This document shows, piece after piece, positions 3,257 to 42,900 of a DNA stretch of 64,000 nt. Position 1 is the stretch's first letter. The number at the start of each line of letters is the position of its first letter. A program made the position numbers and the translations under genes. Source of the DNA: Antedon mediterranea (lineage: Eukaryota > Animalia > Echinodermata); assembly GCF_964355755.1 (NCBI RefSeq), contig NC_092673.1:25789648-25853647 (forward strand), written 5' to 3'. Below the pieces are notes generated by a model. It was not told the DNA's origin and did not search any database. It saw only the letters and a program-made list of their open reading frames with translations.

Positions 3257-3692
3257 AGCGTGGTTCCCACTAGCGACGCAACGTAACGCAACGCAGCGAC
3301 GTTTTGACGCAAAGTTCTATATTGCGTAATCACAAGTGAGAACGACGACGAAATAGTGTTGCATGCAAGCGGGGCACAACACAATTATCGGAAGGGCATT
3401 TTCTTACGTTGCGTCACTTGTGGGAACCAAGCTTAAGCATTGTTCTTGCTCTAAAGCAAGACACGTACGTCAAAACAACAGTAGGCCTACTGCCAAACTG
3501 TGACACGGGCTAAAGCTTGGTTCCCACTAGAACGTAACGCAAGGACGTAAACGCAACGCAAGCGTTTTAACCAATGACAAGCGAAGTTATAGACAGTTAG
3601 CAATCACAAGCGAATAAGCCATCGCTTGTGATTGGTCAATTCACTTGCGTTGCGTTACGTCCTTGCGTTGCGTCGCTAGTGGGAACCACGCT
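3257..3692. mobile_element. Two copies of Harbinger-type MITE family B (3257-3433 and 3514-3692)
   Basis: TIR AGC(G/T)TGGTTCCCACTAG, each copy flanked by TAA on both sides. Other copies at 9872-10077, about 14739-14886, about 20104-20218 and a degenerate one near 905-1015. Confidence 0.8.
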
Positions 3693-3861
3693 TAAGTACG
3701 TACAAATGACGCGCTTGCGTAATGCATACGTACTATACCACATTGGTGCATTGAACTATTTGCGAACTACACAGTGACGCATTTACATACTAACGTGACG
3801 GGCTTGATTACTTAATTGACGTATTTGCGTAAAATACAACGCATTGCACATTTTAAAAGTA

Positions 3862-6800
3862 TTACCCTTGTGATGTTGTTGTAGGCATATAGAGTGCAGT
3901 TACGTGGAAATCAACGTCAATGACATAGTGTGTTGTAGTCAATAGAAGTTCCATTGCATAATCATTTAGATCGGCCTTTCTGGTCTTGTTAGTATAATCA
4001 ACTGTCGTAGCGTTTCTTATTAATACTGCGTTTTGATTTCTATGTTTTATCTGCAAGAAAAAAGTTATGTTATTACATTTATTTAATGTTAAGTAGCTGT
4101 GCTGTTACTAAATGCATATTTTGTGAATTATGTAATTTGTGTAAATCACTCACGCGCGCCCAAACATGATTAACAAAAATATGGGTTTAATCAGGTAGCT
4201 GATGTGTTTGTGTTTTTAAGTGTTAATTGACCAAATAGAACTAGTAAATAGTTCCATGTCCGGTTTTTGACATATTTGCGAGTGAGAGTAATAACTATTA
4301 TGAAGCGAGGGAAAAAAATCAGTAATATTCGATTTGTTTATTTAAAACAGGGATGAGTGACACTTCCCTGTTTAGATTTTTAAAAAGACCGAAAATGTGG
4401 AAAATGCTGTTTTGATAGAGGTGGAATGAATCGCATAGAAGCGTGACGGAGCTATGTATGTAGGCCTACTGGTGTAACAAGAAAATAAGTAAGTAGGTCT
4501 AAAACGACAATTTAACAATCAAATTGTACTTACAATATTTGACATTTTATCACTGATGGTCGTCATCAAATCAGATACTTCCTGAAATTCATTGCTGAAG
4601 TTTCTTAGAGATTGGCTATATAATCGGGCTTCGTTCACCTTTACTTCTTGAAAGACAGTGCGGTATATACCGAGATCAGTTACGTATGTTAATAACAAGT
4701 CCACTTCCTGACGATTAAAAAAATATAGTAAATCAAACTGAACGGAATATATTTCATCAGTGTGGCATATGTTTATTAAGCACGTAATAGAGTAAGATTG
4801 TTCATCGTAATAATCAACCTTACAAGGTAAGAGGGACTAACATAAGAAAAATGCCTACAAAATGATCTAATCTTTGTTACACCTGCTGGTTTCTACGAAA
4901 TTCATTGACGGTGAATATAAGGACTGAATTCAGTATATGATATAATACGACGAACTATAAAGGGTCTATAGTTCGGTATTGTACTAATGTGTGAATTGTT
5001 CCATGGTTAAATACTACAGAGAACAGTCATTGTTGATCGACGTAAAGCGTTAATCAAGTGGAAACTATTCTTTGTGAATTCCTATAGTGCCATATGAATT
5101 ACATGTTATATAGTATTATAACGATTGTTATGGATCACCGGTGTCCGGATAAAAATCCCGCAGGCAGGATCCAGGACATCCGGTCCCGTCCCTTTATGTC
5201 TATCCTGTTGTCAGCCATAGTAGGACTGAAGCTCTGTCTACACCTCTGTCTAAACTATCAAACTAGTTTGACAAAAATGTGTGATGTGCCGAAATATGGT
5301 AGTGATATGACATCATCATGTCATTTGTTGTCACATAAAGTTTGATATGTACGTAGACAAGGAACAAGCAAATTATGTGAATAAAGCTCTGTCTACACTA
5401 TCAAACAAAAAGTTTGATGTACCCATATATGGTAGTGCTATGCTTAAATATGGTAGTGATATGACATCATCATGTCCATATATGGGCACATCACATTTTT
5501 TTGACACATAAAGTTTGATAGTGTAGACAGAGCTTTATGGATAGTATTATTTCAGTACTAATACTAACCCTTGCATTACGGGCGTCTTCAAACGCAAGAT
5601 GAGGTACAGTAATGTTAATGTCGTTGGTGTTGAAGTGTCGTCTACGGAAACGTGTCCGATTCTGTAAAAAAAAACAAGCTAATAAGTAAAAAATATTACA
5701 CTGAATAACATTAAAAGCATCATATCAGATACAATACTAATTTTAAAAAATACACCATGCTAGACATACACCTGAGTTTGTTTATAATATTTAAAAAATA
5801 GTGTGTACTAATTATTAAAACAATTTTCAGAATAAAAGTCCTTATATCATATTAAAATGAAAGTGATAGTAGGCCTAAGTTAAGTAAACACGTTAGTTAT
5901 TTTTATTGTAAGAATATTATACAACAAACAGAACAATAGTATGAATAGGAAAAACATCCTAAAGAACATTTACGTCATTAGTTACCGTAATCGTTTTGAT
6001 TGTAGAAGAATTCTAATAATGCGTCGGTAGGCCTATAGTTTATCAATCGTTGTCTTTTTAGGAGTATGATAATAAGGATAAGAATGATGATGGTAACCAT
6101 GAATGATGAGATGATGATGGGATGTTGTTGGTGATGTTACTGGTGATGTTACTGGTGAGTGGGAGGGTGATAAGATAGTAACATTGAGAATTAAATGTTA
6201 GAGATTGAGATGAGGATGGTAATATTGATGCGGATTTTGTTGATGAGTTTAAATCATAATGATAATGATATTGATGGTGATAGTGGTGTTACTGGTGACG
6301 AGGAGGATAATAAGATGGTTACATTGCGAATGTTAAAGATAGAGATGGGGATGATAATGTTATTGAGATAGAACATTCACTAACTGTGAATTGATTATAA
6401 TTGTGGAAAATCACTTACGTATTCGTTAACAAATGCACTGCAAGACCTCTGTAATTCCGTGATTTTCTCAATAAGAGATGTGTGATGTATTGTCCCTGCT
6501 AATGACACAGACGTTTTGAAGCAGACCAGTATAAACAATGATCCTGAAAGATCAACGTAAAATGATTATTATCTTTTTTAATTTCAATTCACACTCGGAG
6601 AGCCCATCACTTACTAATTGGAATACATAGCAATACGAGACAACATGACAAGAGCAAAACACAATGTGAACTTTGTTGTAATAATTTGTTTGTAACTTTC
6701 AGCTATGGGTTACCCTCATGGTATCGTGTTTGAGTATCGATTAAAGCAAACAAATAAACCAACTTAAAATATTTCTTAATTTTGGATTTATTTAAAGATA

Positions 6801-7729
6801 AACTATGACAGAAAATATCAATATAATGCATGAAATATTAATTAAATAATCTCGGAAGTCTACAAATAAATTTACTGTACACATCCGTTTGGAGGTATCA
6901 CTTATGCCTACTTAAATGTTGCTTACTGCACGTATAAACAAAACCTATCACACATGGCGTGCTTATTCACTCTTCCCTGGCTTATTTACCGATAAACATA
7001 ATGACCGATTTTTCATGTAGTACCGGTATAAAAATAGATAACATGCTACTTTATTTAATGTCACAATTTTCTACATTTACTATCATGAAAAGTCGGACAA
7101 CTGTAATGTTATGGCTAAATTAGTATATTAAATATAAAAAAACTCGTAATAGTTCACTACATTTGTTTGGCCATGTAATTATTGTTTATTTGCATTATTA
7201 TTATGTATTATGAAATATTGCTTTAATTTAGAAATAATTACCAATTTATACAGTTTTTAATTGATTAAAATAAATCATTGCGTGCCACAGAAAGTGTAAA
7301 TGGGTCATGTTTACAAATGAAATACCCTTATAGGCATATACCATTGCAAATAAAAAATTCGGATACATCTTAATATTTCGTATCGTTAATTTTCATGAGC
7401 TGTGATAGTGAGAGAACAGTTGTAGTAAGGAGACAAGAAACTGCACGTGCTGTCTATGTATCTAGACATAATACCGTACGGGAATCGGGTATTCGAAAAA
7501 GTATACATGCCTCAGTAAAATACATCACGCATGCAACCGAATAGGCGTTGCAGTAAAATCAACCAAACAATTGTACTGCAGTAAAAATAATACGTTGCTA
7601 AGAAGCGTTGCAGTAAAAATACATTATCCAACATCTTGAAAACAACGATAAAATTGCCGTCAATTTATCGTATATAATTATCTTAAGTAAATTAAAAAAT
7701 AACTTACCAAATATATTAATAACCATCAT
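3862..7729 (-). CDS. Secreted 200-aa protein, candidate long-chain four-helix (IL-6/CNTF/LIF-like) cytokine, gene A. Exons 7729-7708, 6543-6419, 5661-5569, 4707-4534, 4050-3862
   Basis: All four introns are GT-AG with phases 1,0,0,0 and the spliced frame is open: MMVINIFGSLFILVCFKTSVSLAGTIHHTSLIEKITELQRSCSAFVNEYNRTRFRRRHFNTNDINITVPHLAFEDARNAREVDLLLTYVTDLGIYRTVFQEVKVNEARLYSQSLRNFSNEFQEVSDLMTTISDKMSNIIKHRNQNAVLIRNATTVDYTNKTRKADLNDYAMELLLTTTHYVIDVDFHVTALYMPTTTSQG*. Hydrophobic signal peptide, 5 N-glycosylation sequons. The gene model is read from sequence; the family is inference. Confidence 0.8.
5385..5534. mobile_element. MITE family A copy in intron 3 of gene A (second degenerate copy at 5230-5360)
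   Basis: Complete TIRs AGCTCTGTCTACACTATCAAAC...GTTTGATAGTGTAGACAGAGCT. Confidence 0.8.
6060..6370. repeat. Degenerate (GAT/GGT)n low-complexity tract in intron 2 of gene A
   Basis: Repeated GATGAT, GGTGAT and GTTACTGGTGA units. Confidence 0.7.
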
Positions 7730-8734
7730 TATAGCAATATACAGCTTTAAATGTAAAGAATCGAAATGATTGGTAAGTCGGTGAGTAAATTTTTGCTTGT
7801 TGGTCCTATTAACAATTTTAGTTTATTTATGTTGATGAAAAACTCAGAAATGATGGATGCATTGGTTTAAACTGTTGCTTTTATTTGTTTTTAAGAGGAT
7901 TTACAATTGAATACTATTGTAAATTATTATTAGAAATCTTTGTCAAAGCCGGACCGACGTGACGCAAAATCTATTTTTGGGTTTAAGGATTCGTGAAGGA
8001 AAAGGGTTGACCTTTAACGAATTTTGTTGCTATCTAAAAGCACAATAATATCAATTGTTTTGTTATTTTTAAGTTTCATTTTTTATAAGTTTTCCAAGAA
8101 AATTTTTAAGAGTTGGGCTTACTTGATTTTTTTTTGTTTTTTGTAGTGCCTTATTCATTAACTTGTTTCATTTTTTAGATTGAGGTTTAAACCGTGGGAG
8201 TAAGGGACAAAACCAATAAAACACAATTTTAAATTATTACAAATGTTGTTTTATTTTATTTGTTATTACAATTTTGAATAACATTAGGACTAATTAATTG
8301 GTAGTAATAAAAGTATATGTTTAATGTGCAGAGCTTTCAACAAAATTCCCGTGATGTACGTATGACGAGGCCCTTTCATGTATAGCTTAAGTGGGTGATG
8401 CCTTAAGTGAAATAAGGAGGCAAAGATTATCACTCGTATAATACTCCTGTGAGCCGTTACTTTTATTGGATGGCTATATTATTGCTATGGGTATTTTAAT
8501 TAGTAAGCGTACAGTCTTACCGGTTTTTCAATTATTCAAGTATTATATTTTGAATCATGTAGGTCTTTCAAAGTTATTTCCCGTGGTTTACATGCACTTT
8601 ATATTAGGTCTACAATTTCATTATAAGTATAAGTTGGTTATACATCATGTTACCCATCTAACAGGTTGCAGAATTATAAGTATATTTTGAAAATATGTTT
8701 TCCATGGTTTACGTACTTTATGATGAGTGTGTGA

Positions 8735-10151: not shown

Positions 10152-10444
10152 AGATGTATTGTCCCCCAAAAACATAACAAAAATAAAGATTAATAAAATT
10201 AGACTTTAAATATGCTATTTTTGCATTTTATAGAGCAGAGGAATGAAAGTTTTCCTTATAAAAAGAAAGCATAAATTCTTCAATGTAACCAATTATTGTC
10301 TGACAGAAAATTTACTATATTTTGCTTTGAATTACGTTGATTTAGGTAAATGTTTTTCTCTTATGTGTCATTAAAATGACATATTCAACATACACACTTA
10401 AAAAAGGTATTTTTTTCGAGAGGTGGAGGGGTGACAGTATATCT
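10152..10444. mobile_element. Kolobok-like MITE (TTAA target, AG...CT ends)
   Basis: TTAA|AGATGTATTGTCCCCC...GGGGTGACAGTATATCT|TTAA. A second copy at 21717-22018 is nested in a pogo-like MITE. Confidence 0.6.
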
Positions 10445-13400
10445 TTAAAATTTAAAATTGTCATTTACATAGATATATTATTGTACTTCCTGTTCATTTT
10501 TAAATACAGTATTGTTATTGTTTTGTTTATTATATCAATATTCCAGTTATTAATCGGCAACAATAATACAGAAGTGTCGGGAATTAAACGTCAGGCAAAA
10601 ACCACAACTAAGCTTACGATGCATGTTACGGCGTGTTACCTGATGGAAAAAACCCCACCCTTCAAAGTGACAAATTGAAGGAAGATTCCTTGGAACTAAA
10701 CGATCTTAGTGTTACATACGCCCACTAAATAATCAATCTTCTGGTATCAAAATAAACTCTTCCTTAAACACACAAAAATAACAACGAAATATGAAATAAG
10801 TGTTCCTTCTAGAACAGTGTAAATTATTTTTTTATAAAAGGAAAAAAAACGTTTTATCGATGTTAATATTATTACAATCAAAATAGGCATAGATCAGCAT
10901 AAATTATATTCAATGAGGTAAATTGTCATTTACATAGATATATTATTGTACTTCCTGTTCATTTTTAAATACAGTATTGTTATTGTTTTGTTTATTATAT
11001 CAATATTCCAGTTATTAATCGACAACAATAATACAGAAGTGTCGGGAATTAAACGTCAGGCAAAAACCAAAACTAAGCTTACGATGCATGTTACGGCGTG
11101 TTACCTGATGGAAAAATTCCCACCCTTCAAAGTGACAAATTGAAGGAAGATTCGTGTTACATACGCCCACTAAATAATCAATCTTCTGGTATCAAAATAA
11201 ACTCTTCTTTAAACATACAAAAATAACAACGAAATATGAAATAAGTGTTCCTTCTAGAACAGTGTAAATTATTTTTTTATAAAAGGAAAAAAAACGTTTT
11301 ATCGATGTTAATATTATTACAATCAAAATAGGCATAGATCAGCATAAATTATATTCAATGAGGGCGATCTATCTATCTATCTATCTATATCTATCTATTT
11401 TCTCTTTTCTAATCTGATCAATATGATATTGTTTGCGTGGTTACGGAAATGAAATAATTGAAGACTACTTAATCCCAGAAAAGTAAGGGAAAATAAAATA
11501 TGTTCAGGTATTTCTAGAGGAATGTACTCTATATATTTGCTAGTTTTAAGGATTTCCGCTTAATAAATATCATAATGTTATACAATTTTCCTTTCATATT
11601 GTATACAATGTAATTTTTAATTAAGCCAACGAAATGCTTGCTGTGTCATCTTAAGAGAAAATGTTAAACAGTTTTACTTCACCTCATGCATAATTAGGAG
11701 GATGTGGAAGTCCCATCCTCTAACTTTACAAAATAGAAAATCCGATGGGTTGATCCCTTCAATATTAAGAAGACAATTTCTTCCATTTGCTAAGGCTCTG
11801 TCTACACTATCAAACTTTATGTGACAAACAAATGTGACGTGCCCATATGCGGACATGATGATGTCATATCACTACCATATTTAAGCATATCACTACCATA
11901 TTTAAGAACATCACACTTTTTTGTCAAAGTAGTTTGATAGTGTAGTTTAAATATTTTAATTGTTTTTTTAAGCCTGAAAGACAATATATTTTAATTAAAT
12001 TTTTTTAAATGTAATATGGTTCCATGAATAGTCAAATTAATTCTTAAATACGAAAAAACACAATTAATAACTGAAAAAAATTGTATTAACACGCTTGATA
12101 AAAATTAATGTATGGAATTTAACGAATTACAACAAATAGAAATGTGTTAATTTATCTTCGCGGGATATTGACTTCGCGGTAATTGACGACCTCATCAATA
12201 ATTTTTATTATATATTCATTATGTCCTTTGATTTCCTTTTGTGCTTCTACAGTACACACATTTCTTAATTGAAGAAAATATATAAAATAATACCTAATGG
12301 CCCATCGACAGTTTATTTATAATTATCTTTGAAATAGTTTTAATGATGTTTTGTTTGTCAAAGAGCTTAACGTTGGAAAATATATGTAATGCATAATGGT
12401 GTTTAGAGCAGAGGAATGAAAGTTTTCCTTATAAAAAGAAAGCATAAACTCTTCAATGTAACCAATTATTGTCTGACAGAAAATTTACTATATTTTGCTT
12501 TGAATTACATTGTTTTGGGTAAATTTTTTTCTCTTATGTGTCATTAAAATGACATATTCAACATACACACTTAAAAAAGGTATTTTTTCGAGAGGAGGAG
12601 GGGGGACAGTATATCTTTAAAATTTAAAATTGTCATTTACATAGATATATTATTGTACTTCCTGTTCATTTTTAAATACAGTATTGTTATTGTTTTGTTT
12701 ATTATATCAATATTCCAGTTATTATTCGGCAACAATAATACAGAAGTGGGGAATTAAACGTCAAGCAAAAACCACAACTAAGCTTACGATGCATGTTACG
12801 GCGTGTTAACTGATGAAAAAACCCCACCCTTCAAAGTGACAAATTGAAAGAAGATTCCTTGGAACTAAACGATCTTAGTGTTACATACACCCACTAAATA
12901 ATCAATCTTCTGGTATCAAAATAAACTCTTCCTTAAACACACAAAAATAACAACGAAGTATGAAATAAGTGTTCCTTCTAGAACACTGTAAAATATTTTT
13001 TTATAAAAGGAAAAAAAAACGTTTTATCGATGTTAATATTATTACAATCAAAATAGGCATAGATCAGCATAAATTATATTCGATTAGGGCGATCTGTCTA
13101 TCTATCTATCTCTATCTATCTATTTTCACTTTTCTAATCTGATCAATATGATATTGTTTGCGTGGTTACGGAAATGAAATAATTGAAGACTACTATACTT
13201 AATCCCAGAAAAAGTAAAGGAAAATAAAATATGTTCAGGTATGTCTAGAGGAATGTACGGTACTCTATATGTTTGCTAGTTTTAAGGATTTCCGCTTAAT
13301 AAATATCATAATGTTATACAATTTTCCTTTCATATTGTATACAATGTAATTTTTAATTAAGCCAACGAAATGTTTGCTGTGTCATCTTAAGAGAAAATGT

Positions 13401-14237
13401 GAAACAGTTTTACTTCACCTCATGCATAATTAGGAGGATGTGGAAGTCCCATCCTCTAACTTTACAAAATAGAAAATCCGATGGGTTGATCCCTTCAATA
13501 TTAAGAAGACAATTTCTTCTATTTGTTAAGGCTCTGTCTACACTATCAAACTTTATGTGACAAACAAATGTGACGTGCCCATATGCGGACATGATGATGT
13601 CATATCACTACTATATTTAAGCATATCACTACCATATTTAAGCATATCACTACCATATTTAAGAACATCACACTTTTTTGTCAAAGTAGTTTGATAGTGT
13701 AGTTTAACTATTTTAATTGTTTTTTTAAGCCTGAAAGACAATATATTTTAATTTAATTTTTTTAATGTAATATGTTTCCATGAATAGTCAAATTAATTCT
13801 TAAATACGAAAAAACACAATTAATAACTGAAAAAAATGGTATTAACACGCTTGATAAAAATTAATGTAGATGGAGTTTAACGAATTACTACAAATAGAAA
13901 TGTGTTAATTTATCCCGGACCCCCCCCCCCCCTCACTCTATTCGAGAAGAGGGAGGGACATATTCAAAGCGGGTAAATACGGCGTTTGACTTCGCGGGAT
14001 ATTGACTTCGCGGTAATTGACGACCTCATCAATAATTTTTATTATATATTCATTATGTCCTTTGATTTCCTTTTGTGCTTCTACAGTACACACATTTCTT
14101 AATTGAAGAAAATATATAAAATAATACCTAATGGCCCATCGACAGTTTATTTATAATTATCTTTGAAATAGTTTTAATGATGTTTTGTTTGTCAAAGAGC
14201 TTAACGTTGGAAAATATATGTAATGCATAATGGTGTT
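10231..14237. repeat. Recent tandem duplication (10231-12403 and 12404-14237) containing a ~460-bp block present three times
   Basis: Both units start TAGAGCAGAGGAATGAAAG and end GCATAATGGTGTT. The block occurs at 10455-10918, 10920-11363 and 12626-13089. Confidence 0.9.
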
Positions 14238-15649
14238 TTACCAAACCGATTGAGTGTGAATGCTACGAGGTTTTACGTATCGAAACAATTTCTTTACAAA
14301 AACCATGGATGCAATGTGTTTATGAATATTTCACAATCATAACTGAGATGACAGATGAGAAAAACATACACAGGCTATTCTACATGACCACGTGTCTGGG
14401 TTTTCAATCAATCATCTATGAGAGTGATCCGGGGGTACGGTATCACCAACCTCACCCTAAATTTCACTCAAACTCCATCTATGTGTCCTTCTCATAGGTG
14501 CTCAGCAAAAACGTGGTGTTGATAACTGCAGTTAGGCATTCTTGTTTTCGACGTACTTCTCGGAATAACCAAACAAATAGCCTAGCACACAACCAAAATG
14601 TTTCATTTTCTTATTCATTTTATTGTTAAAATATATTTTTTTCATCTAAATTTTCTTATCAAAATAGCAAATATAATATATGAACTCATCATGAGCAAGA
14701 TACAAAAAATTAAGTTACGCATACGTTCCTGACTATAATGCTTGGTTCCCACTTTAGACGCAATGCAAGGACGTAAACGCACGTAAGTAACGCGCACGAT
14801 TCGACCAATCACAAGAGATGAATTTATTGGTCAACTCGCTTGCGTTGCGTCTACGTCATTGCGCTGCGTCTAGTTGGAACCACGCTTAAATAAGCTTATT
14901 ATAATAAATATTGGTAGTAGACGTTATATTAAATATACTATTAATAAATACTTGTAATAGATAAATCTCAAGGTATCTAAAATAATCTATTATACATATA
15001 GATTCAGCTGCATGTATTGTCTTCGTTATTAGTAATCATAAGCGATTGTCTACATAAATATATAATTGCACGATATATAAATAAACCCTAACTACACAAG
15101 CGAGATCGAAATAAGAGGCGTAATGAAGAAATGGATTAAATGTAAAACTGGTTTGCTGGCTAATTTATATTTGCAACGCTTATTTTTACGGTTATGGAAA
15201 TAAAAGAGTAAAGTAGATTTTTTTTTTTCATTCGTCAATGACGAATAATTGATTGTACTTCATAGCAAATTTGGAACGAAAATACTGTTGCTAAATTAGG
15301 GCTACTACAATTGAGTATATCTAATTTGACTCTATATGTTCCTCATGTCTCGTCTTATTAATTTAAAAAAGGTTAGCTACCCCCTTGAAACTAATTCTTG
15401 TAGGCATAGGTTTTACCAGACCGGTTGATAAATACTAATAGAATAGTGCTAATTGGTGAAATGCCAGACCAACAGATTTTGAATACACCCATTTCTCACA
15501 CACATTTTGTTCAAAGTAATACCAGAAACATTAAGCATTATTTTAGCACACATACAATTAAATAAAGTCAAGTTATACACATCTACACAATTGATTTTGT
15601 GACCGTACATAACTTGTCTCACAAAAATGATTACAAACACTACTAGCGA

Positions 15650-18044
15650 CTAAATGTTCATTTGTATCTCGATTCTCCTTATAGCTAAAACGGCTGTAGG
15701 AAGTATCTTCACGCGACATGCAGATACCTCCAATCGGCCAATAACGTCTCCCCATCCGTCATTTGTACATACATGTGGATCATAACGAAAGGTTGTGGCA
15801 TTCATTATCTAAAATTATAAAATACATATGAAATTGTTAATTTGACGAAACTTTTAAAACACATTGTAGCATCGAAATGATGGGATTTGTGGAAAAAACA
15901 TATAGAGCACGCATGTTCTCTTGCACTGTACATAATTTTAATGTAAAACAGGAAATAGCCTATGCCTAATTTTTATAGGGATGTCAGAGGATGACAAATA
16001 ATAATACTGTACTGTACTAGGAAATTAATAATAATAATATCAAACATTCATAAACCGCTCTTTACCGGAATCTCACATCGCAATATGAAAGGTTTTAAGG
16101 AGAGATTTGAATTTGAATTGAAATGTAAAAATGCTAAATTCCACTTACATTTCTGGCTTCGGTTATCGCATCAACAGTCTTGTTTACTATAATTCCAATG
16201 AACGCAAACTGCTCATCTGAGGTGACGTTATTTTTTACATGAGACTCGTAAAGAGACGTAAATAGGCAATGGTAATTCTCCAACGAATACAGCATATCTT
16301 TTAAAATTTCCACCTGCAAAAATAACTTAGCTAAATTATTATTTATAAGAATTACTGTACGGTTGTGTCTCGAATACGAAACATTCAAATAAGCCCTGCT
16401 TAACTATCGTAAAACCTAAAAAAAAAGAAGCACCCCTTTCTTTTCGAAAAGACTCCCCTGTTTGGTTTGCAAAAGTAATCTCGAAAAGAAGCCCTTTTCA
16501 AAATAAAGATACTGTAGATAGGCTTCTCTTAATGCCAGATGCAGAATAATAATGTATGATCGTATTTATATCGTACATTTTTTGTTGGTGTTTTGATCTA
16601 CTTCGTTGGCTAAAAAAAATTATTTACAGGGAATTTCTCAAAACCATATTATTGTATTAGCAATTCACAAGATGAGGATGCACATTGGTTTTATTTTGGG
16701 ATGCGAGAAAAATTGACATCAAACAGCCCTCTTATTTTTTTTATTATTATTTTTATTTAAAAATAAGTAGGTTAAATACCGTATTGTTTTTTCCAAGGAG
16801 AGAAATATATAGACTGGGAAAATGAATAGTGCACACATTTGCAGCTGCAGAAATTGAATCCTGTGAATAAATGTATAGAAAACAGTTAATACAGCTATTA
16901 TTACAGTTCAATTATTATCAACGTGATATTTGGTGTAAAACTTAGGGGATATAATATGAGACAATAATGATAACGGTGTATTATTAATCAATTGTTTTAA
17001 GTGTGATCCATCAAATAAAGATATGAGATGTGATTGGAAGATAGTGAATGAATGATATTTTTAAAAGACGGAAGCCCAGATCAGTGATATCACTGAGGCC
17101 TTCCACTGGGGCTCCTGTACTAATAATATGTACTTATCTCAAATTTAACAAAGACTAATAAAGTTGAAGAAGCCTAAAGCAAAACCTTATTCATCAATCA
17201 TGTTAACAATTTCAATTACTTATAACATTTATCAATACTAGATATTTGGCACTTTACATTTAAAAAATTCAGCAGGATAGTTAATTAAAGATATAATACG
17301 GTTGAAGAGAATTTTTGTAATAAATGTGTTGAGAGGTGACCTCATTGTTCACACTGCCTTTTAATATAATAATAAAGTAAACTTACCTTTAATTCAAGCG
17401 TATCTTCTATAACTTTACACAGATTTGCGATTGGTTCAAAAAGTGGCGTCAAATTGACTTCAGTATCCCATGCTGGTGCGATTGGTTCAAAAAGTGATGT
17501 CAAATTGACTTCAGTAACCCATGCTGGTGTAGCCACCACCGTTGTCGCAGGTAGTGTAGTCGGCGCTCCGACTGCAAATGTCATCACGTACCCAATCAAT
17601 AATATTACTAAAATTATTGAGAACATTTCAAATTATAATTTGACAATTTTGTTTAGAATCATAAACTGCTAAAGATTACCAGTTTATTTTGATTTTACAA
17701 TTGATTGACAAATTGATTCATGTTCGTTTAAAATTATTATCAAATCGCCGCATATTTTCATAGCTTTAGGCCTAGGGTCAACTCATTTGTTAGTTAACCT
17801 GATGATCCGACCCACTTAATAAAATTCTGATTTTCTCCTCACACAACATAATAAACAAAACCAATCCAACAATCCATCACGACAGAAAGCACATTCATCT
17901 AACACGAATGAAATAAATTCAAAACATTTATGAAACCTTAAGTTTTACTAATAAATCAACAAAACAATTAGTGTAACTATTGAGAAGTATATCAGTAAAA
18001 ATAAATAATTGTATCCACTCACCGTAAGATGTATAAGAAGCCAT
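15650..18044 (-). CDS. Secreted 215-aa protein, candidate long-chain four-helix cytokine, gene B. Exons 18044-18023, 17607-17387, 16860-16780, 16313-16149, 15808-15650
   Basis: All introns GT-AG, phases 1,0,0,0, first coding exon 22 nt as in gene A. Spliced product: MASYTSYVILLIGYVMTFAVGAPTTLPATTVVATPAWVTEVNLTSLFEPIAPAWDTEVNLTPLFEPIANLCKVIEDTLELKDSISAAANVCTIHFPSLYISLLGKNNTVEILKDMLYSLENYHCLFTSLYESHVKNNVTSDEQFAFIGIIVNKTVDAITEARNIMNATTFRYDPHVCTNDGWGDVIGRLEVSACRVKILPTAVLAIRRIEIQMNI*. Signal peptide ending near AVG-AP, 5 Cys, several sequons. Confidence 0.75.
17426..17527 (-). repeat. In-frame 51-bp tandem duplication in exon 2 of gene B
   Basis: Units 17426-17476 and 17477-17527 encode PAW(V/D)TEVNLT(S/P)LFEPIA twice. 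Confidence 0.95.
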
Positions 18045-19167: not shown

Positions 19168-20556
19168 TATATGATTTGTTATGTCTTGATTGTTGGTGGA
19201 CGCCTGTGAATGTTTAGTGGTAATCTTTGCTAATTGTTACATGAAGGATGGGGAAATGTTTATATTCTACAGGGAAACCATTAGCATTGCTCTTAATGTG
19301 AAAATGTGACTAATAAAACATCTCGAATAAGCTGGCCTGGCATTATTAAAAAAACTCAATCAGCTCCAGAAGCATTTAGACCATCATTCTTTATTATCAA
19401 TAATGACGTGCAAAACCAGTATAGTTTGTTACAATTCACATTATTTATTAAGCTATGTCTACACTCTCAAACTAGTTGTGATGTGCCCAAATATGGTAGA
19501 GATGTTTCCAAGTATGATAGTGATATTACATCATCATGTCCATGGGGACATCACATTTTTTGTGTCAAATAAAGTTTGATAAAGTGTAGACAGAGCGTAA
19601 TTCTGCGCAATTATTTTCTTTATCTTTCCCACCCATCTGATTCCATTTGGCATCCTTGATAGTTGGTCAGCATAGATCCTGAAGGAAGTGGTAAAATATT
19701 CTATAGCGTGGTTTATTACAAAACGTCCTGACGTTTAGTCACTAACGTTATTTTATAAACTTAACCATTAAATATTGAACAACGTGCCATAACATTTCAA
19801 TTTATTAGATTGTTTTTAGGTTTTGTGTTTTTTTTTACTTTTTTCGTTTTTAATAATAAAATGAATTGTTTAATAAAATAGGGCTCTTCTGTTAGCGGAT
19901 TTGGTCAGTGTTAGTGGTAGTTGTGTTTTTTCTGTGGATTCCAACAGCACTCTCCACACCTCCTCATTTCCCAGCCCGCTTACAGTATTGGTTTCTTGGT
20001 AATTAGCCCTAATATTGATTTGATTTGCGAGTGTAACCTTTTAGAAGCCCAATTGTTCACCTCTTTTTAACTTTTAGAATGGAAAAGGCATTATATTTTT
20101 TTGTTGGTTCCCACTAGGACGAAATGCCAAACTTTGACCAATCACGAGGCGATAGATGATAAGTGCGCTTGCGTATGCTACTTCTTGTGTTCCGTTCTAG
20201 GGGATTGAGAACTAAGCTTTACCATGCATTTGGTGCACGTGGTGCTTTTCCTAATACACCTTTATTATTACCAATTGGTCTAATTATTACTGAGTAGGTC
20301 CTTGCTTTATAAGTATGTATAAGCTTTAAATTTAAATGTGCGGCGCTTAAGTTATAATACGACTCTTCCAGTCATCGGATCATTACTTCATTTAACACGA
20401 GCCCAGACTTCTTAGAATTGTGTACAGTACAGAATGTTTTCTTATTACTGATTTTATTGGATTTATTTTATGCCAACATAGCAAACCAGCCTATTGAATA
20501 CTGGAAAATCATTACAGTGATTACTTTTCTGGTAAAACTTGTATAGTAGGGTCTCG

Positions 20557-26800: not shown

Positions 26801-29800
26801 TCATGTACTGTAAGTGTCTTTGTGGCACGGCTCCACATTATCTTAACAAACTTATTAAACCATATGTCCCACTATGCAGAGGTCTTCAATCTAAACGGAT
26901 CCTTTTACAGCACATAGAACCAACCTTAAATCCGTGCCTAAGGGCTTCTTTGCACAGGCACCAGAGATCTGGGACCAACTTCCTCCCCTTTTCTAATCAA
27001 ATCTTTCCTAAAAACTCACCTATTTCAATAGTTATTCTTTTCATATTGTGCTGTGAGACTCCTCCGGTAAAGAGCGCTTTATAAATATTTGATATTATCA
27101 TTATTATTAATCATGACTTAATGTAGTCCACTCAGTATCCCCCAAACACGACTTAAATACCTTTATTATTATTATACTTTCTTAGTATACCCTGTATTTT
27201 GCAAGATATTTCTATCCAATGTGTTGAAATAAAGAGATTTAAGACAAATAGAAACTTACAGTATAATAGTACATTGTTTTTCATTATACAGAAGTACTGT
27301 ATTAATTGTTTTATAATTAAATAATAAATTATAATAATAAAGATTATTAATATTATTCCAGTAGTCTAGTAAATCTGAAACAAATAAATAATAAATAATA
27401 AATGCAATGTTTACTATAATCCCTGGTTCAACAACCTCTCATTTATGGGAGTCTTCACAATTTAATGATCGAAACAAATAATACCATATTAGGCATCATA
27501 CCAAAAAGAGAAATAAACTTTAGTTTCATTTTCATAATATTATTCTTAAATTTATTGGAATTGTACCATGATCTTTTTATACAAAATCATGATAAAATAT
27601 TGTTTTTCTTCTTTTTTTTTATTGAAAATATTATTAGCATGATTACAGCTGTTTTGTGAGTTCTATCATCCATCCTTTTGCACTGAAAGTTGCTCTCCAA
27701 TTTACACTACAGTTAACAAGTTCCTGGTCTTTTAGGAATTCATACCATTATTTATCAAAGATTCTGCAGTAAGTTTTTCTCTAAAACACATCTCTAAATC
27801 AGTCACTCCACATTGATTAAAAGTATAATACTACACTATTTATTAATTTAATATTTTTATCATGAAATTAAAAAAAAATAAAAATTGTAAATAGTGCTTT
27901 TCATAATTACCAAATTTTTATATTTTTCATTGAGTCATAGTGGCCTAGGTTGCTTTTGTTTTTCCTGATTTTTGGGGGGTTTTTTTGGTCAAATAAATTA
28001 ATGAAATTAAAATTAATTGTTAATAATTAGAAATTGTATAATATATTGCAAAAAAAAAAAATTTATAGTATGTCTTCTTACTTTATTTAAGCATGTACTA
28101 TTACTTCATTTGATAATGTATTGTTTATAATAATAATAATTAAATATTTATTTTAAAACGGTGGCTCCTTTGAAAGTTTTCATGGCGGAATGATATGTTG
28201 ATATAAAGTTTGCGTTACATCACATACTGTATATAGTTTTGAAAAGAACTGTTGAGTTTCTCTAGGAATAATAATATGCCTAGAATATTCTATGCTAAGA
28301 CCAAAAAGAACCCCCTGAAATTACAGTAGTGCAATTATAAATTATGACTAAATACAATTAGTCGACTTGATTCTGAGAATGTCATAATTTTCTCACCTCC
28401 CAAATGAAGTAATTAGATATTAAGGTATTTTAAATTAGGGTGTTATGTAAATTGAATTAAAATTTAATAGAATTGCAATGCTATGCCAACCCAATATTGT
28501 TTAAATTGTTTTGATTGGTTAATAGGATCATTTTGTGGTAGGACACGCCTATTATACCAAATCCTAAACAAATACATACAGTACATAACACACAATACAT
28601 CACACCATTTTATTACCGGTAATAGTACAATGGAAGGTATTTGAGGATATAAGTTTATCAAAAGATAGTATCAAAATGTACTTTTCAACAATTGTCTCAT
28701 ATTCTAGTTCCAGGACACACCCTTTGATGAGGTGATCTTAAACCAAATTCTAGAATTTTCTGAAGACCATAACAAACATTACACCATCACAAAAATATGG
28801 TATGATGTGAGCAAAATTAATCTTGGTATATAAATTGAAATCGTTACAATTGTCTTGTGGGTGACCACTCCCATTAATGAGGATGTTAGGTGAATCAATA
28901 TTTTAGCATCCTAAAGTGGGTCACACGATGACTGAAATCGCACCAGAGGTTTAGGTCATACGATATCGCACCAGAGGTTTAGGCCACATCTTGTAATGAG
29001 GTTATAGTTTTTAACAAAAACTGCTAAACATATGATTAAAATGTTTTAAACAAATGTTTGTGGTGCCTACCACATATTTACAGTACCGCATTTCTAAGAA
29101 AATCATCTAATTTATTAATTAAGGAGGATTAGGAATAGCTATACATATGTATACTCTATTGTTAAAATATGAGCATGATATTAATAGAACCTAGGTTGAT
29201 TGAATAATTAGAACTATTACATCACATGTGACATTTATAACAATAAATCACGTCATGAAAATCATATAGCACAATGGGAGCTTAATACTTGGAGTGTGGG
29301 ATGTGTCTATTGACTGGGGTCATTGCCTACAACCATTCACATCAGTGTATGATCTGATTTTAAATAGAGGTTGGACTTAACCTTTAGATTGCCTTTTACA
29401 TTGTCCAGACACCATAGTTGCATACACACTGAACAATCATATCGCTCGTAAAAAAAAAATAACACTATTTTCCCTATTCAACTTATTATTTTTATGGTAT
29501 TATATGAGCATTCTTCATTTTATTTATTTAACCTTATTTATAGAGGGTGATCCAAAACATGCTGACAATCTAGGGGCCCTCATAACCCTAGTTTATCCTC
29601 CTGACTGTGGTGGTCTGGAAATCATGGGTTTGAGTCCCACTTTTTGATGCTGCTTGTATCCTTAAGCTATATCTACACTATCAAACTAGTTTGACAAACA
29701 AAGTGTAATGTTCCCAAATATGGTAGTGATATGACATCATGTCCATATATGGAAACATCACATTTTTTTGTCACATAAAGTTTGATAGTGTAGACAGAGC

Positions 29801-32800
29801 TTTAGACAAGATACTTTACTTATGTTTGCCTCTCTCCACCCAGGTGTATAAATGGGTACCTGGTTAGATAAAGACACAACTTTGTGCTGATCTAGCTGCA
29901 TTATTATGAGAGTATATTTCCATACGTGTTTGATTAAAAAAAAGAATGACTGGGGTAATAATGTTCAGTGCTTAGAGGTTTCACAACATTAGGCGCTATA
30001 TAAATCTATGATATTATTATTATACTACATACTGAGCAAGTACATTTTGCATGTCAAAATGCACTCCATACAGTATATCATTATTTCTTTGCTGGACACA
30101 CTGCTTATTGAATTAAGGGTATGTGGCACAGTGTGTTTCTTTGTCAAGAGACTTGCCTCTTTCCGCCCAGTTGTATATGGGTACCCAGTAGGGTCTAAAA
30201 TCACAATTGCACTGATTACTAGCTGCATACTGTATTTATGAGAGCAGTTCCTACATGTTTGATCCAATGACCGAGGGAATTATTAATATGAAGTGCTTAA
30301 AAGCTTTGAGCATTAAGCGTTATATAAGATTGATATTAAATCCCCATCTGTACTGTAGGTAGTATGATTCCAGGCTAGTGATATGTATATTGTTGCTATG
30401 TTTTCAATCATAACAATTTTCCTTTTTAAAAATAAATCACAAACAATAGTATGATTATTTAATGCTATTGTATTGCTGGGAGGTGAGGTGGTCCAGAAGG
30501 CTATTCTCTTGTTGTAAATAGTACACAAATCACACCCCTTATCAAAATATTTTGAAATTTGATAGTTCTGTGTTTTGGTGATGAATAACAAAAGAATCAC
30601 AATTTTAACATTCAAGAGGAACTAAATCACGGAATTTCCAAATCAAACGCACATTCTTATATTTTCAAAGATATTTTGTTGGGTGTTACATCAGGCGTAT
30701 AATTTGTCAATAGTATGACCAGGTTGATATTTCATTTGCACCTTCAGGGGCTTTTTAACAAAAGATTGGTACATGACTCATACTACTATCAAACCCTGGT
30801 AGACAGAAAGAACGCTCTCTTTATTCCCTTCTTTTACACCTATAGTTTTGGCTGATGCAAACTTTCCTTCAAGTTCAATATGCAAATCAGGACCAATCCT
30901 TATACGTGCAGACGGTAAGAGGTATCTTGTTTTTTTTTCTATTTTTAGCAAATTTTGTGTCTTCATGTTGACATCATATTTCAAATTATCCATGCCATTC
31001 GATTGGTTGATTACATATCATGCATTATTTGAATACATCCCGATTGGAAGTTAATTTTTTTGTTAGAAATATTTGTTTACAAAGCTAATATAGGATTATG
31101 AATTTTTTTAATAATGTAAAGTGCGCCATCTACAATATAACAGCTATTCGCTGCCAAATAATGAATGCCATATTTATTTATGAGTCTTCAACATTCGATT
31201 CAAGATGGAAGCAGTGGTGGCGCCAGAATGTGCCTCCGCCGGAGGTCGAAGGGGTGGCATGTTTGCCAAGCATCCATTTGCTGGATTATAATTAGACATT
31301 CTCCTCTTAATCCATAAGGCATGGATTATATTACACCACATTGTATGAGCAATGCTGTAGCTTTGTTTAGTTCTTAAATTTGAATTTAAAACATTTTTTT
31401 TTAATAGGCAATGATATTCCAGGCCTTCTGAAGGCAATTTTGACACTTCTACCATTAGACACCTATGTCGATCAACCTGTAAGTGTGATCTTGTGCATTT
31501 GATCATATATTAAACTATTTTAATTTCACGACATGCCACTAGACTACCACATTTAGTAGTAATCAATCACAGTCCTACCATATAAGTGGTAATCCCCCAC
31601 ACACATATATTTCTGAGAATTATGTTTTGATGCAATAGCTACAGTATAGCCTTGTAGTTATTCTTGACATTCGAAAATTGTTACTGTAGCATTAGGTAGA
31701 CTTGTAATGGAATAAAGTAAAGTAAACAATATCAATTTGTACCGTAAATTTTAAAATGTATTAAATTATTCTGAGCGGCCAAACCTAATTTAATTTTAAC
31801 TACTGCTGCTTTTTCAATTATCTAAATTTGCAGAAATATCATACCCTGAAATAGTATAGCAATTTTTTGTTAGTACCCATGAGAGTACTTATGTACTTAA
31901 AATGGTTTGTTGAGCTTAAGATTTATACCATAAAAAACTAAATATTGATCTTATTTTAGGTGAATTCTAACTCGGTCAAGCTCTTTCTACACTATCAAAC
32001 TAGTTTTTAAAAAGAAGTGTGATGTGCCCAAATATGGTAGTGATGTGCCCAAATATGTATACCTTTATAATAAAAAAACAGCATTTAAAACATAAGAATA
32101 AGTAACAAATATACGTTTTATTTTTAATGGGATCATTTCAATTAGGCCTGGATTGAAACAAAAAAAAAATGATTTCTAGTTAATCTTATAAAGTAACATA
32201 TATGTGTTCATAAACTAATATTCATTACTTAAATTACTATTAAAAACAATTTTTTTTTTATATAATAATAAATATAACATATATCCGGTAGTAAATAGTT
32301 AATTATCAGTCTATTAGTATTTTAGGAAAAGCTATAAATACGCATTTTTACAAGCTTATAGATATTGAACAAATATAATAAGTGTTTGTTTATGAGTCTA
32401 TTATTTGTATTAAAATTCCCTAATTTTTCAGGAAAAGTACACATACACACTTACTGTTTGTGTGTAGGATGTTAATGATTATTCTGTTTAAACTCTGGAT
32501 AATATTTTGTTATAGTATAAATGTACACATCTATTCTGTTTGTTTGGAAGTATATTGTAGTATTGGTGGATGTTAGGAAGTTTAAATTTAATTTAGTATA
32601 CTGGCAGGGCAGATCAAGGATTTTCTTTTAATATGAAAAGCTAAGATAATAGATATAAAAAAAAGTAGTGCATAATGTCATTTTAGCTGTCAAAGGGGTA
32701 TGCGCATGACACAAACGCTACCCCTTTGCAGGGGTTATTCACCAACCTTCAGTTTGGGATGGTAAATGAAGGTAGGTTGTAACAGGTTTGGAAATGTCTC

Positions 32801-35800
32801 CTTCGTCTACAGTTCCAAAACGAAACAGTATGTCATACTTTGCATTGTGATAAGGTGAAAAAGTTAAAGAAAAGAAAATAAACTGTAAATGTATGCAAAA
32901 AAAAGATACAATAGAAATTACCAAATGTGTCAATCCTCCATACTGTGACAGTTTATTGAAATTGGAACAAAATCAGGGACAAATTTGAAGAAAAGAAAAC
33001 TTTCAGTTGATTAAATCCAGTGACTCATTCATATCTATAAATGTATTTAACTATACAACAGGAACAATATAAGTGTGTCAAGCCTGTATTTCGATTGTTT
33101 GCAGGTTTTTAGGAAGTGTGTGTAGGTAAAAGGAAAACATAATATAAATATTTTGATTAAGCACTGTTCTGTCAGACGCAGTTAGTCAATTAGATTCTTG
33201 GAATACGATTAGGTGTAAGGGACTATTGGTATACTCCTACGCCAGTCATTGAACCCATTGTATTTTGTATATTAAGAAAATAGAATATAAGCTTCATGTG
33301 GAAAAAACTTATTCAATTACTAATTTAACCTTTAAAATTAGTGTGAATAATAGTAAATACCTGTACTATCACTCTATCATGACACTTCCGGGCTGGGTGG
33401 TATCAGGTCCACCCCCTTGATCAATGGACCAGATGCCTGCATGAGTTGACCTTGTTATTTATTATGACAATGCAATATTACTATTTAATGAAATGGGTAA
33501 ATAAAAAAAAAGAATTGGTATATTGGCATATACTGTAGGTACTGCTGATAAAGTATCATATTTGAGTGACCTCTGTATTAACAACTATAATATGTTGATT
33601 CCTATTAAAAGTTATGAAATATGTTTTACCAGGAAGAGTTAAATTTATTTCACTCTTCACTGGTTTTACATCCCATACATTGCATTTGTTACTGCTGGAA
33701 AAGTTCTGGAAATTGACTACAAAGGCATTATAAGTTATATCAATTTGTGTTTTTACAATATAGTAAAACCCGTCCTTTGGAACACCCCTATGCAAGAGAC
33801 ACCACAAAAGGAACAATTTCCCATGAGGAGCAAAATACTTTTTAATTTAGAGGACACTACACTCTATAAAGAAATATTTGGGTCCTGAGGGTATCCCCAT
33901 AATAGTTGTTCTAATGTACATTACCACAGTAACCATTCCTAACTCAATCCTATAGTTTGCCCTGATGGGATCAAATATATCTGAATCCAACCAATCTAGA
34001 TGCTGTTCCTCTTCATATGTTTGAGTATGGTAGCCAGAATTTAGATTGTACGAAGATAATGTTTCTTTGAAATGTTTACACTGGTAAATTACTTTATGTT
34101 TGATCAAGGATATAGACAAATACTATTCATTAATTCACAAGTACAGTAGTTAACCAGTAAAATCCCTATGTTATGAATGATATTTCTGTAGCGCTTTAAA
34201 AGGGAACTTATTTTAGAACACTCTTTCTGCTTTACCACCCATGACGAATAAAGTGGAGTTTATAGTTATTATCAATTGTGTAGCAAAGCTTTATATTTAT
34301 ATTTTATAATAAGCAAGAACCTTTTAATACCTAGAGTCACCCTTTAATAAATGTACATTTTAGACATACCCTTCTTTTTGGGCATCTCTACTCAAGGAAC
34401 ATTCCTAGTAAGGTCGTTAATAATAAGGATTCTACTGTTCATTATCATAGGTATTGTTCTTTTTATTGTCATCAAAAAGACGTGGCAATTATCATAAGGG
34501 CGTGTGGCGCAGTTTGTTGGACGTTGGTTTAATGATCGTGAAGTCATGGGTTCAAATCCAACACTGATTATTAGCTGCATTAATGGGAATATGTTTACAT
34601 ACATTTTTGATGCCAAAAATTGAATAAAATGGGTTAATGTCTAATAACATTATGCACTTTATATAACTCCAGGATATTATTATGAAATAAAATGAACACA
34701 ATCTTCATATTTTAATTTCAGGCAGTGGTGATGCAGTTAGTGGATAGTGATGCTCAGCGACAGTTAAAAACCCCTGTTTGGGAAATATATAAAGAAATGT
34801 TAACAGAGGCAGAAGGTAGACAGGTAATAATAATATCAACTTTTCCCTGTTTACTGTGATAAGGAATGTCACATGAAATTAAGATTATAATATCCAGTAG
34901 TTTCTATGAAGGGATGGATGAGTCATGCACCTTTGTAGTGCATGCATAATATTATACTGTCCTCCTCTTCTTCTCATGTGTCAGTGCTTCCTCTCTCCCA
35001 TATGCCTCGCCTGTATCCCCGGGTATTACACGTACCTCACATCATTCACTACCTCCTGCCTCGCATATGGTAGTGCCTTATCTCTTGCATAAGGAATACC
35101 TTCTCCCTTACATATGGAATGCTTCTCCTTACATATGGATTGCCCACTACAATGATAAGTAGGCACATTCTTCAGTGGGAGATGGAACACTTGACCTGAT
35201 TTTAAGTACAGTATTGTAATAGCGGAAATTTAATCTGTTTATTGACCACTGATCAATAAAAACAATTTATTTCTGATGACTTTACCACAAAATGAGACAT
35301 TGTTTTTAATGTGACCTTCAGTTTACTATGTAATAATTGTTTATATAGTAGTAGGGGGAAAAAAGATATCATTTTAGAACAATGTGTGATTTTTAGTTGT
35401 TTATTTATTAACAAATATTAATAAATGTTCCTGTTTTCTGTTCTGTATTTCTAATCTTGAAATGTTTGTATTTCTTCTAGATAATAATTCAGATTATTAG
35501 AAAATGCAGTAGGGTCTATAAACCCACCCCTTGTTGCACTTTCCCATAATAAACATTAATATATAATCTTTAAAACACCATAATATTCAGAATGAAAATG
35601 TCTTACTATTTATACACAAAATAAATTCAATAGTGAATCAGTAGTGTCTAATTTCAATTAATTGTTTTGATTTGTATTTTTCTATTTCTAGATAGAATTG
35701 AGAAAGGTTGAACGATTCAAGTTTTATGATCGAGCACGAACAGCTTTTGCTGTTGTAGCAACAGGGTATTTAGAATTTTCTCAAAAAGTATTTTCTATTT

Positions 35801-39934: not shown

Positions 39935-42900
39935 TTAATTGTACCAATCAAGGAATAATAATGTAAATGAGCACATAAACAAGAAAAATAAAATCCACAC
40001 TCGAAGACTTGCATTATTCTTGATAGCCTGGGGAAAAAATTAAAATAAGAATTAGCGAAAAATTAAGTAATAATTATTTTTACATACCTAAATTGATTCT
40101 TTAATGATTTGATATCTTTTAATAAGCGCTTTCATTTCGAAAGGTTTAGGCCTTGGCATAGCGTCTCGTTAAAAGTAGGTGCGTTATAAAACAAATGTTT
40201 ATATTCGTGCAATGTTACAAATAATTTCATTCGGTGAAGGATGAAATGTTCTGTTTTAGAGATAGAAACCTATCATCTTTCACCTCATGAAATTATTTGT
40301 ACCATTCCACTCATAAACATTCATTATTTGTATAACTAGTATATTTCAGAATGTAACATCATTAATGCAACTCACTTCTCTTATAGCTTCTGTAGCACCT
40401 TCAACATTCTCAGTAGATGTCACAGCTTTTTCTATAACTTGATCAATAACATTATCCTATTGAGTAAGCAAAGATATTTTATTTACTTATTTGGTGCAAT
40501 AATAATTCAATATTAAAAATGGGTTTATTTTTTTAGATAACTGCTTACTATGGTACCATAAGATGATGATAACACAATACATATGCATATATATATTTTA
40601 GTGCATAATAATTCATTTTTAAAAAGTACATGTTTTGCAAATTTTTTGACAAATTCCTTAATATAGTACAGGAATTGTTTTATCAAAAAATTGGCACATT
40701 TTTACCATTATAATTTTTTTACGCAACTGCTTTAATATGGTAACATAAGATAAGATGCAATATATATGCATATATATTAATTTGAGTGCATACAAATTCA
40801 TTTGTAATTATTTTTTGTACATAATAATTCATTTTTAAAAAGTCCATATTTTTGCCATTTTTCGACAAATTCAACAAATCATAAAATTATTTGTACCATT
40901 GCACTCATAAACATTCATTATTTTGTATAATATACCACTGTATAAATGTTTTCACCTGTTTTACAACCTCATCCATAAACACTGTTTGTAAAGCTGCAAT
41001 ATCTACAACCTTTCCTTCTAGTTCTCTAAAAAAATAAAAGAAGCTAATTTATTAAAAAACATCAACACTAAACTATTAAACTGGATTTTGGCTCCCAAAT
41101 ATGCAGATGCTGTTGTTAAAGCCACTCAATTCTTCCTCCCTGAGAGTTCATGCAAAACATACAAAAATATTCTTAAATTTAATTTGAACAATTACAGTAT
41201 ATCTATCTATCAACCGAGACTCGAACCCGAAACCTTCTGCTTGATATGTAGATATCCTAACCATTAGACCACTGGGCTTTCATGGTATTGTTCAAACTCG
41301 ATTGGAACACCTCTAGTCCCTCAATATATATATATCTTTTGACCATATAAATATTAATATTTTTTAATTTATTTTAATTGTTTACATTTGTATATTATAA
41401 CCTGTATATTGTTTTTTACATTGTACAATGAACACAAATTGGTGGTTTCATTTACAATTTCTGGCTTTTAAAATATGAGTGGAGGAGGAGGGCCATCAAA
41501 CATTTTAGAAAGAAAGAGAAGTGATCTTATTATTTACCTGACTTCATCAAGATTATTTTTCTCCTGCAGCATCATCTGGTTTTCTTGTTGGAACTGAAAT
41601 AATAAAAATAAATCAAAAATTCAAGATATAAATTTGCATATTTCGGCAGAGCATAGCACCCTCAATTTGACGATTTTAGCAAAATGAAAAGAAATATGGT
41701 GCTTTTAGTGTAGGAAGGGGGAGAGAACGAAAGTGATAATTTAAATAATTTTGTTTGGATTATTAATTATGAAAAAGCTTATTTTCTCCACAAAATTCTT
41801 ATGAAATGTGTTTTTTTAAAGAATAGTGGTAACAAATTATAATAAGTTGGAATAATTTGCCGGCATTCCAGTAATAATTTATACGCAAAATTTATTTTTT
41901 AAAAAAAACACTATAGAAGCCAAAGTTCAGAATGATTTGAATGGCAAATCACCTAATTTTTAACTAACTATAGAGGGGGTTGTACAGTACTGTAAGGAAA
42001 ATATTTTAAACCAATCATTTTTCCTATACTTGTTATACCCAGTTCAATTGAATTGGAATATTTTATTTAAACTTGGTAACCTCTCCCGTCTCCAAGAGGG
42101 CCCAGTTATGATCAGTGGATGTGATATACTAGTACACTGGATACAACCTCTCATCTCAAAAGATGTACTAGGTTCTTTAGATTGCACAAAGAGCTAGATG
42201 TGTAGTATAACACTGGACCTACAGTTTATAGTCCTTATCCAAAAAGACTCATTCTACCACCAGAACCATGGAGCGAGTGAGTCTTGTATCATTGCCGATA
42301 TTACGGCCACTCACTCACTCTAACGAATGAAATTTGTTATACCTGTTAGTACTGGGAATACACAAGCTTAAAGAAATTAATGAATAAAGTACCATTGCAA
42401 TTTCTTCAGGAGATAGCTCATTGTCAGAATACTCTTCATGATTAGTTACTTGGTTTGATAAATCTGAAATAGAATATAAAAATCAATCCCCAGATTACAA
42501 ATGCTCACTTTACTGTGCTGTATATATACGAAAATAGGGAGAATATTTTACCAGTCACTTTTCTATTAACTATTTCAATAGCAAATCAAACACAAGAACG
42601 ATCAAACAAAAACGATCAAACAATCGGTGGTTGCCACACACAACCCACGCATCTGACATACGCAAACAAAACGTTATCTCATCCGGCCGTGTTTACCAGC
42701 GGAAAAAGTCTGATCGTTTTGCAGATTGTTGTGCTATACATGGGAGTGTTATTTCCGGGCCAACTAGAGGTGCCATTTATCATGAATTTTATGTGAGCGA
42801 GAGTACCATTTCCGACCTGGGGTGTTATTTACAAAAGGGGCCTGTGGCTCAAATACTTAGTATCTGGACCCCCCGCCCCCTATTTAAAAATCCTGGATCC

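Follow-up and report, generated by a model that had tools for sequence, protein, structure and literature searches.

Gene A, which lies on the reverse strand of a 64-kb window (the whole stretch of DNA analyzed, 64,000 nucleotides) of the genome of the crinoid Antedon mediterranea, is a genuine spliced gene of five coding exons. The gene is likely to encode a secreted long-chain class I cytokine of the group that includes IL-6, IL-11, LIF, IL-27p28, G-CSF and GH, and its product is predicted to be a ligand of a gp130/Domeless-type receptor acting through JAK/STAT. The class I fold itself can be assigned with high confidence, on the evidence of features from a language model, a single structure match and the exon architecture. 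Gene A is best read as a long-chain cytokine specific to its lineage that falls outside the subfamilies of vertebrates.

The exons of gene A (Table 1) join into a single open frame of 603 nt (200 codons), with GT-AG boundaries in all four introns and intron phases of 1, 0, 0 and 0. Apart from the first Met of the model, the product is the RefSeq protein XP_071948875.1 (199 aa, an “uncharacterized protein” of A. mediterranea), and exon 1 measures 19 nt when counted from the RefSeq ATG; with exon 4 as the query, one protein among four candidates proved to be XP_071948875.1. A phmmer search against 1.84 billion representatives returned two proteins at E<=0.001, namely gene A itself and XP_033110289.1 of Anneissia japonica (196 aa, 43% identity, E 5e-37, full length and nearly gap-free). 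The Anneissia protein is the orthologue of gene A and the sole homologue found.

Table 1. Features of the window (positions counted from its first letter)
Feature	Position	Strand	Description
Gene A 3' UTR start	3673..3861	-	under the same X1 contig as exon 5 (depth 27.5)
Gene A exon 5, coding part	3862..4050	-	189 nt including stop; predicted CD loop and helix D
Gene A exon 4	4534..4707	-	174 nt; predicted helices B and C with the short BC loop between them; phase 0
Gene A exon 3	5569..5661	-	93 nt; predicted long AB loop, conserved Pro-x-Leu, N-glycosylation sequon; phase 0
Gene A exon 2	6419..6543	-	125 nt; remaining part of the signal peptide, then helix A up to residue 48 (both predicted); phase 0
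Gene A coding exon 1	7708..7729	-	22 nt from first ATG; start of predicted signal peptide; phase 1 donor
Gene B (model)	15650..18044	-	exons 18023-18044, 17387-17607, 16780-16860, 16149-16313, 15650-15808; 215 aa
Fucose mutarotase-like (FUOM-like) gene	30842-35787	+	RbsD_FucU, E 1.6e-4
Syntaxin-18 (STX18-like) gene	49416-49712	-	E 1.1e-8
VPS51-like gene	50520 onward	+	E 0.033; head to head with syntaxin-18
MITE-like repeats	1385-1547, 3510-3696, 5244-5537, 11790-11945, 19437-19596, 29662-29811, 40183-40336, 53070-53243, 54365-54533

Splicing of exon 3 to exon 4 is seen in X1, a putative RNA run (classed as RNA by guess), in which a contig runs along exon 3 as far as the donor and then carries 17 letters matching 4690-4706, the start of exon 4, an overhang under the 31-letter bridging bar. 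A second X1 contig (555 nt, depth 27.5) aligns to 3673-4050 and ends exactly at the exon 5 acceptor; its 177 leftover letters fit exon 4, and the depth of 27.5 recurs at 4699 within that exon. Junctions 1-2 and 2-3 were not observed in spliced form in the runs examined, and run X3 contains 5545-7950 as a single unspliced piece. Other runs carry exonic variants at 4699, 5625 and 6443, two of them synonymous and one changing Asn61 to Asp, with no exon indels among the variants listed.

Each of the two orthologues contains one strong hydrophobic stretch, at residues 5-15 (KD 2.8 and 3.2, compared with at most 1.6 elsewhere), from which a signal peptide was called in both by a hydropathy heuristic. 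An ER-retention signal is present in neither protein, whereas five sequons are found in each, and the gene A product is likely to be a secreted glycoprotein. The lengths of the two proteins (199 and 196 aa), with an N-terminal leader, fall within the range of about 150-280 aa expected of long-chain class I precursors.

In an AF2 model from the two sequences, which is of low confidence (pLDDT 37), the gene A product forms helices at residues 21-53, 78-105, 112-139 and 162-190, with helix and loop lengths of 33/24/28/6/28/22/29 aa. With the reservation that applies to this model, the AB and CD loops (24 and 22 aa) are long and the BC loop (6 aa) is short, in agreement with the preliminary description, the four segments quoted in which are all present in the product. 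Four long helices with long-short-long loops fit the class I plan, and the loop lengths suffice for overhand connections. The hydrophobic-Pro motif noticed in the AB loop is kept in Anneissia as Pro-x-Leu (P68, L70).

The description of all four segments as amphipathic holds for A and C but not for B, and D is marginal, when the hydrophobic moment at 100 degrees is compared with 5000 shuffles: for gene A alone the values are p=0.017 (A), p=0.97 (B), p<0.001 (C) and p=0.15 (D), and for the two-species average p=0.03, p=0.78, p=0.0002 and p=0.04, respectively. Identity between gene A and its Anneissia counterpart is 15/25 in the AB loop, 16/28 in helix B and 15/31 in helix D, and lower in helices A (11/30) and C (10/28). 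Because the long loops of cytokine bundles cover the B-D face, amphipathic A and C together with a non-amphipathic B and a marginal D are consistent with a cytokine bundle.

Conventional searches did not connect these proteins to cytokines. Neither gene A nor the Anneissia protein, nor any of the five exons taken singly, produced a Pfam cytokine match at E<=10, and the same applies to the individual profiles IL6, IL11, LIF_OSM, CNTF, GCSF, Hormone_1 and Unpaired, among them all the profiles proposed for such a search at the outset (CNTF, LIF_OSM, IL6, IL11 and Unpaired), given that HMMER filters drop weak matches. No cytokine was retrieved from the PDB by phmmer or with a two-sequence profile, and the residue-level likeness to human CNTF, drawn by eye in the preliminary description, was not reproduced by any sequence or profile search.

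The ESM Atlas gave a different result. In the feature search, the LIF cluster ranks first for gene A (0.94, 215/256 features in common), followed at 0.91-0.92 by unnamed cnidarian, arthropod and mollusc clusters and by GH/prolactin-type, IL-6-like, G-CSF-like, cardiotrophin-2-like and IL-11 clusters. Among the best 10 matches, all eight with a Pfam family are helical cytokines (LIF_OSM, IL6, IL11, GCSF, CNTF and Hormone_1), the other two having no family. The Anneissia protein scores 0.93 each with LIF, IL-6-like and IL-11 clusters (214/256 features in common). Shuffled proteins attain >=0.9 in 4-10% of such searches, against which these scores are to be read; both results come from one method applied to related, non-independent crinoid queries.

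The Atlas models of gene A and the Anneissia protein are confident (pTM 0.74 and 0.77, respectively). The gene A model matches an IL-27-alpha cluster with TM 0.63/0.66 over 152 residues spanning positions 28-197, a value below the bar for naming a family, and the other nine matches listed have TM <=0.44. An in-order match over all four helices suggests that the connectivity is the same. With the Anneissia protein, there was no cytokine among the best 10 structure matches, the highest of which (TM 0.45-0.46) are bacterial. The two AF2 models of gene A (pLDDT 33 and 37) are too poor for judging topology; Foldseek found no significant match to them, and with the better model VIA returned generic bundles only.

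The structure searches that gave no cytokine, together with the empty Pfam and PDB searches and the rate at which shuffled proteins attain high feature scores, would be compatible with an unrelated secreted four-helix protein whose likeness to cytokines is convergent or a language-model artefact. We consider this quite unlikely in view of the large number of features shared by both orthologues, the structure match that covers all four helices and stands clear of the next one, and a matching exon plan, which is independent of the protein-level evidence.

The introns of gene A are located at residues 6/7, within the leader, and at 48, 79 and 137, where, in the low-confidence AF2 model, helix A ends, helix B begins and helix C ends; gene A accordingly has five exons, with one leader intron and three introns at predicted helix boundaries. 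With respect to the numerical intron phases of vertebrate cytokine genes, the pattern 1-0-0-0 is common to IL-11, G-CSF, EPO, IL-27p28 and GH genes, and from general phase frequencies a few percent of genes with five exons would be expected to show it by chance. LIF and OSM have three exons, and the leaderless CNTF has two. Three exons are also given for CLCF1 in the available text of PMC8780587, and a five-exon plan with a leader intron and three introns in the domain is that of IL-6 genes (bioRxiv 10.64898/2026.04.02.716188). Class II cytokines (IFN/IL-10) are unlikely relatives, because interferon genes, according to the available part of bioRxiv 2026.05.30.728932, have five exons with phases 0-0-0-0, and the first intron of gene A is of phase 1, not 0; in addition, no class II cluster appears among the Atlas matches listed for either query.

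Within class I, the original designation of gene A as a CNTF/LIF-type cytokine is borne out with respect to the long-chain class I but is too specific as to the branch, given the absent FxxK, the five exons and the small score margins: the IL-6-like, IL-11, G-CSF-like, cardiotrophin-2-like, CNTF and GH/prolactin clusters all score to within 0.02-0.03 of the LIF cluster. Gene A is therefore classified as probably a long-chain class I helical cytokine, on the basis of predicted features and without a specific CNTF/LIF placement. According to the available text of PMC9601804, FxxK, located at the start of helix D, is needed by the LIFR-binding group and is kept in >=95% of LIF/OSM/M17/CT-1 sequences. 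As was initially pointed out, this motif is absent from gene A and likewise from the Anneissia protein, and it occurs nowhere in gene B (see below). True orthology to the LIFR-binding branch (LIF/OSM/CNTF/CT-1) is accordingly highly unlikely, even though LIF heads the feature clusters of both orthologues and 20% of the members of the IL-27-alpha structure cluster carry the CNTF Pfam domain; apart from the missing FxxK, the five exons of gene A contrast with the three of CLCF1, the LIF score is only 0.01-0.02 above those of IL-6 and IL-11, and the accessible portion of a survey of the family gives no invertebrate matches to the LIFR-binding group (PMC9601804).

Similarly, IL-6 is distinguished by characteristic cysteines and a site III Trp, as described in the available text of PMC7378365 and in bioRxiv 10.64898/2026.04.02.716188. 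The gene A and Anneissia proteins contain no Trp at all, at site III or elsewhere, and no conserved Cys in the mature chain, where each has a single Cys at a differing position; gene A thus lacks both the two or four conserved cysteines and the site III Trp of IL-6. The lack of site III motifs would also suit a GH/prolactin/leptin-like hormone that has the class I fold but signals via a receptor homodimer instead of serving as an immune cytokine of the gp130 type. The genes of GH, too, have five exons with phases 1-0-0-0, Hormone_1 (GH/prolactin) clusters account for 11/30 feature matches with both crinoid queries, and a GH-like class I cytokine is reported from amphioxus in the available text of PMC9010856. 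Nevertheless, the hormone assignment appears unlikely: LIF, IL-6 and IL-11 head the cluster ranking, and in structure the match is to IL-27-alpha. Moreover, the GH family has conserved disulfide cysteines, for which the single non-conserved mature Cys of gene A offers no equivalent.

For a long-chain cytokine of the gp130/Domeless-binding type, the following mode of action can be proposed. A leader of about 22 aa, predicted from hydropathy, would be removed on secretion, leaving an N-glycosylated mature chain of about 177 aa that would fold as an up-up-down-down four-helix bundle. The long AB and CD loops would pack on helices B and D, which would account for the better conservation of these two helices and for their having more than one hydrophobic face. 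Helices A and C, amphipathic and more variable, would provide the exposed face for receptor binding (site II). Binding would dimerize a class I receptor of the gp130/Domeless type and activate JAK and STAT5-type factors, and signaling may serve a response in immunity, injury or growth. Since the sequence has neither FxxK nor the site III Trp, a simpler two-site (GH/leptin-like) or divergent site III binding mode appears likely. A STAT5-type palindrome is found at 8087-8100 (reverse strand), next to a TATA-like box and some 360 bases upstream of where gene A starts; by itself it is not above background.

About 8 kb upstream of gene A, on the same strand, the window contains gene B, for which no protein record was found and which may be an unannotated gene. 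Its model has five exons with phases 1, 0, 0, 0 and a 22-nt first exon, as in gene A, and the product contains a hydrophobic stretch and a short repeat rich in Thr and Pro, both N-terminal, as well as five Cys and, where putative helix D starts, Trp182 (in Trp-Gly), which resembles the site III Trp of IL-6 and IL-11 in position. Gene B is a candidate tandem paralogue; its similarity to gene A is not significant (exon-anchored p=0.079). It is conceivable, if somewhat doubtful, that the two genes are tandem echinoderm long-chain cytokines descended from a pre-vertebrate ancestor of IL-6, IL-11, G-CSF and GH, with the 1-0-0-0 plan kept, and serve as ligands of the orphan gp130-like receptor of echinoderms, gene B with a site III-like Trp.

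Between the two genes, 10231-14238 holds a recent tandem duplication of a non-coding-looking unit of ~1.7-2.2 kb with 93-100% identity. Short palindromic MITE-like repeats are present in many copies, with very high depth in all runs, and one of them resides in intron 3 of gene A. The FUOM-, STX18- and VPS51-like neighbors could be used as synteny anchors.

Recent surveys describe IL-6-family ligands as vertebrate-only and IL6R-like receptors, JAK and STAT as present in echinoderms (available text of PMC13203501, PMC12284397 and PMC9601804). An IL6R-like protein is reported in Strongylocentrotus (PMC13203501, available text), contigs annotated as IL-6 receptor are induced in sea star wasting (PMC4503460, available text), and a sea star IL-6-like molecule was reported in 1996, according to a title cited in PMC4503460. 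No echinoderm class I cytokine gene is named in the literature search listings, which included a term search of PMC13736523 and covered few subscription papers. Gene A probably adds a new member, from echinoderms, to a known class of cytokines, and with its orthologue it makes the question of the missing echinoderm JAK/STAT ligand directly testable. If the assignment is correct, the origin of the long-chain cytokine plan moves back to at least the deuterostome ancestor; if genes A and B descend from an IL-6/GH ancestor, the gp130-cytokine module would be older than the split between echinoderms and chordates and would have escaped notice only because its sequences diverged. Unnamed Atlas clusters from Cnidaria (56 members), Arthropoda (56) and Mollusca (114, with IL6 Pfam in 11%) match the crinoid proteins with scores of 0.92-0.93, a hint that helical cytokines without a name are widespread among invertebrates. 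Because these clusters score equally well, the crinoid gene is probably not unique but one of many overlooked invertebrate members.

Compared with vertebrate IL-6, IL-11, LIF/M17, IL-27p28, CT-2 and G-CSF, gene A is alike in a length of about 200 aa with an N-terminal leader, and it shares with the IL-6/gp130 family four long helices and long AB and CD loops (as predicted), the five exons (a leader intron and three in the domain) and the top Atlas clusters. Unlike this family, gene A belongs to an echinoderm and is devoid of detectable sequence or Pfam similarity to it, of the IL-6 cysteines, of the site III Trp and of FxxK. The neighbors identified in the partly annotated window are FUOM-, STX18- and VPS51-like, with TOMM7, the syntenic partner of IL-6, not among them. 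Unpaired proteins are longer than cytokines of the gene A type. Gene A has no Unpaired Pfam match and agrees in size and exon plan with the long-chain cytokines of vertebrates, but Drosophila Unpaired, the invertebrate ligands of Domeless (available text of PMC7378365), and the amphioxus GH-like protein (available text of PMC9010856) are likewise secreted helical ligands of class I receptors in invertebrates. A further parallel is with the IL-6-like genes of lamprey and hagfish, which were missed by BLAST and recognized by length, leader, predicted fold and exon plan (bioRxiv 10.64898/2026.04.02.716188); gene A is likewise missed by sequence search, and tandem copies occur in those animals. 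The lamprey and hagfish genes have two or four cysteines, synteny and STAT5/SOCS assays, whereas gene A lacks such cysteines; those genes are chordate, whereas gene A lies outside the chordates.
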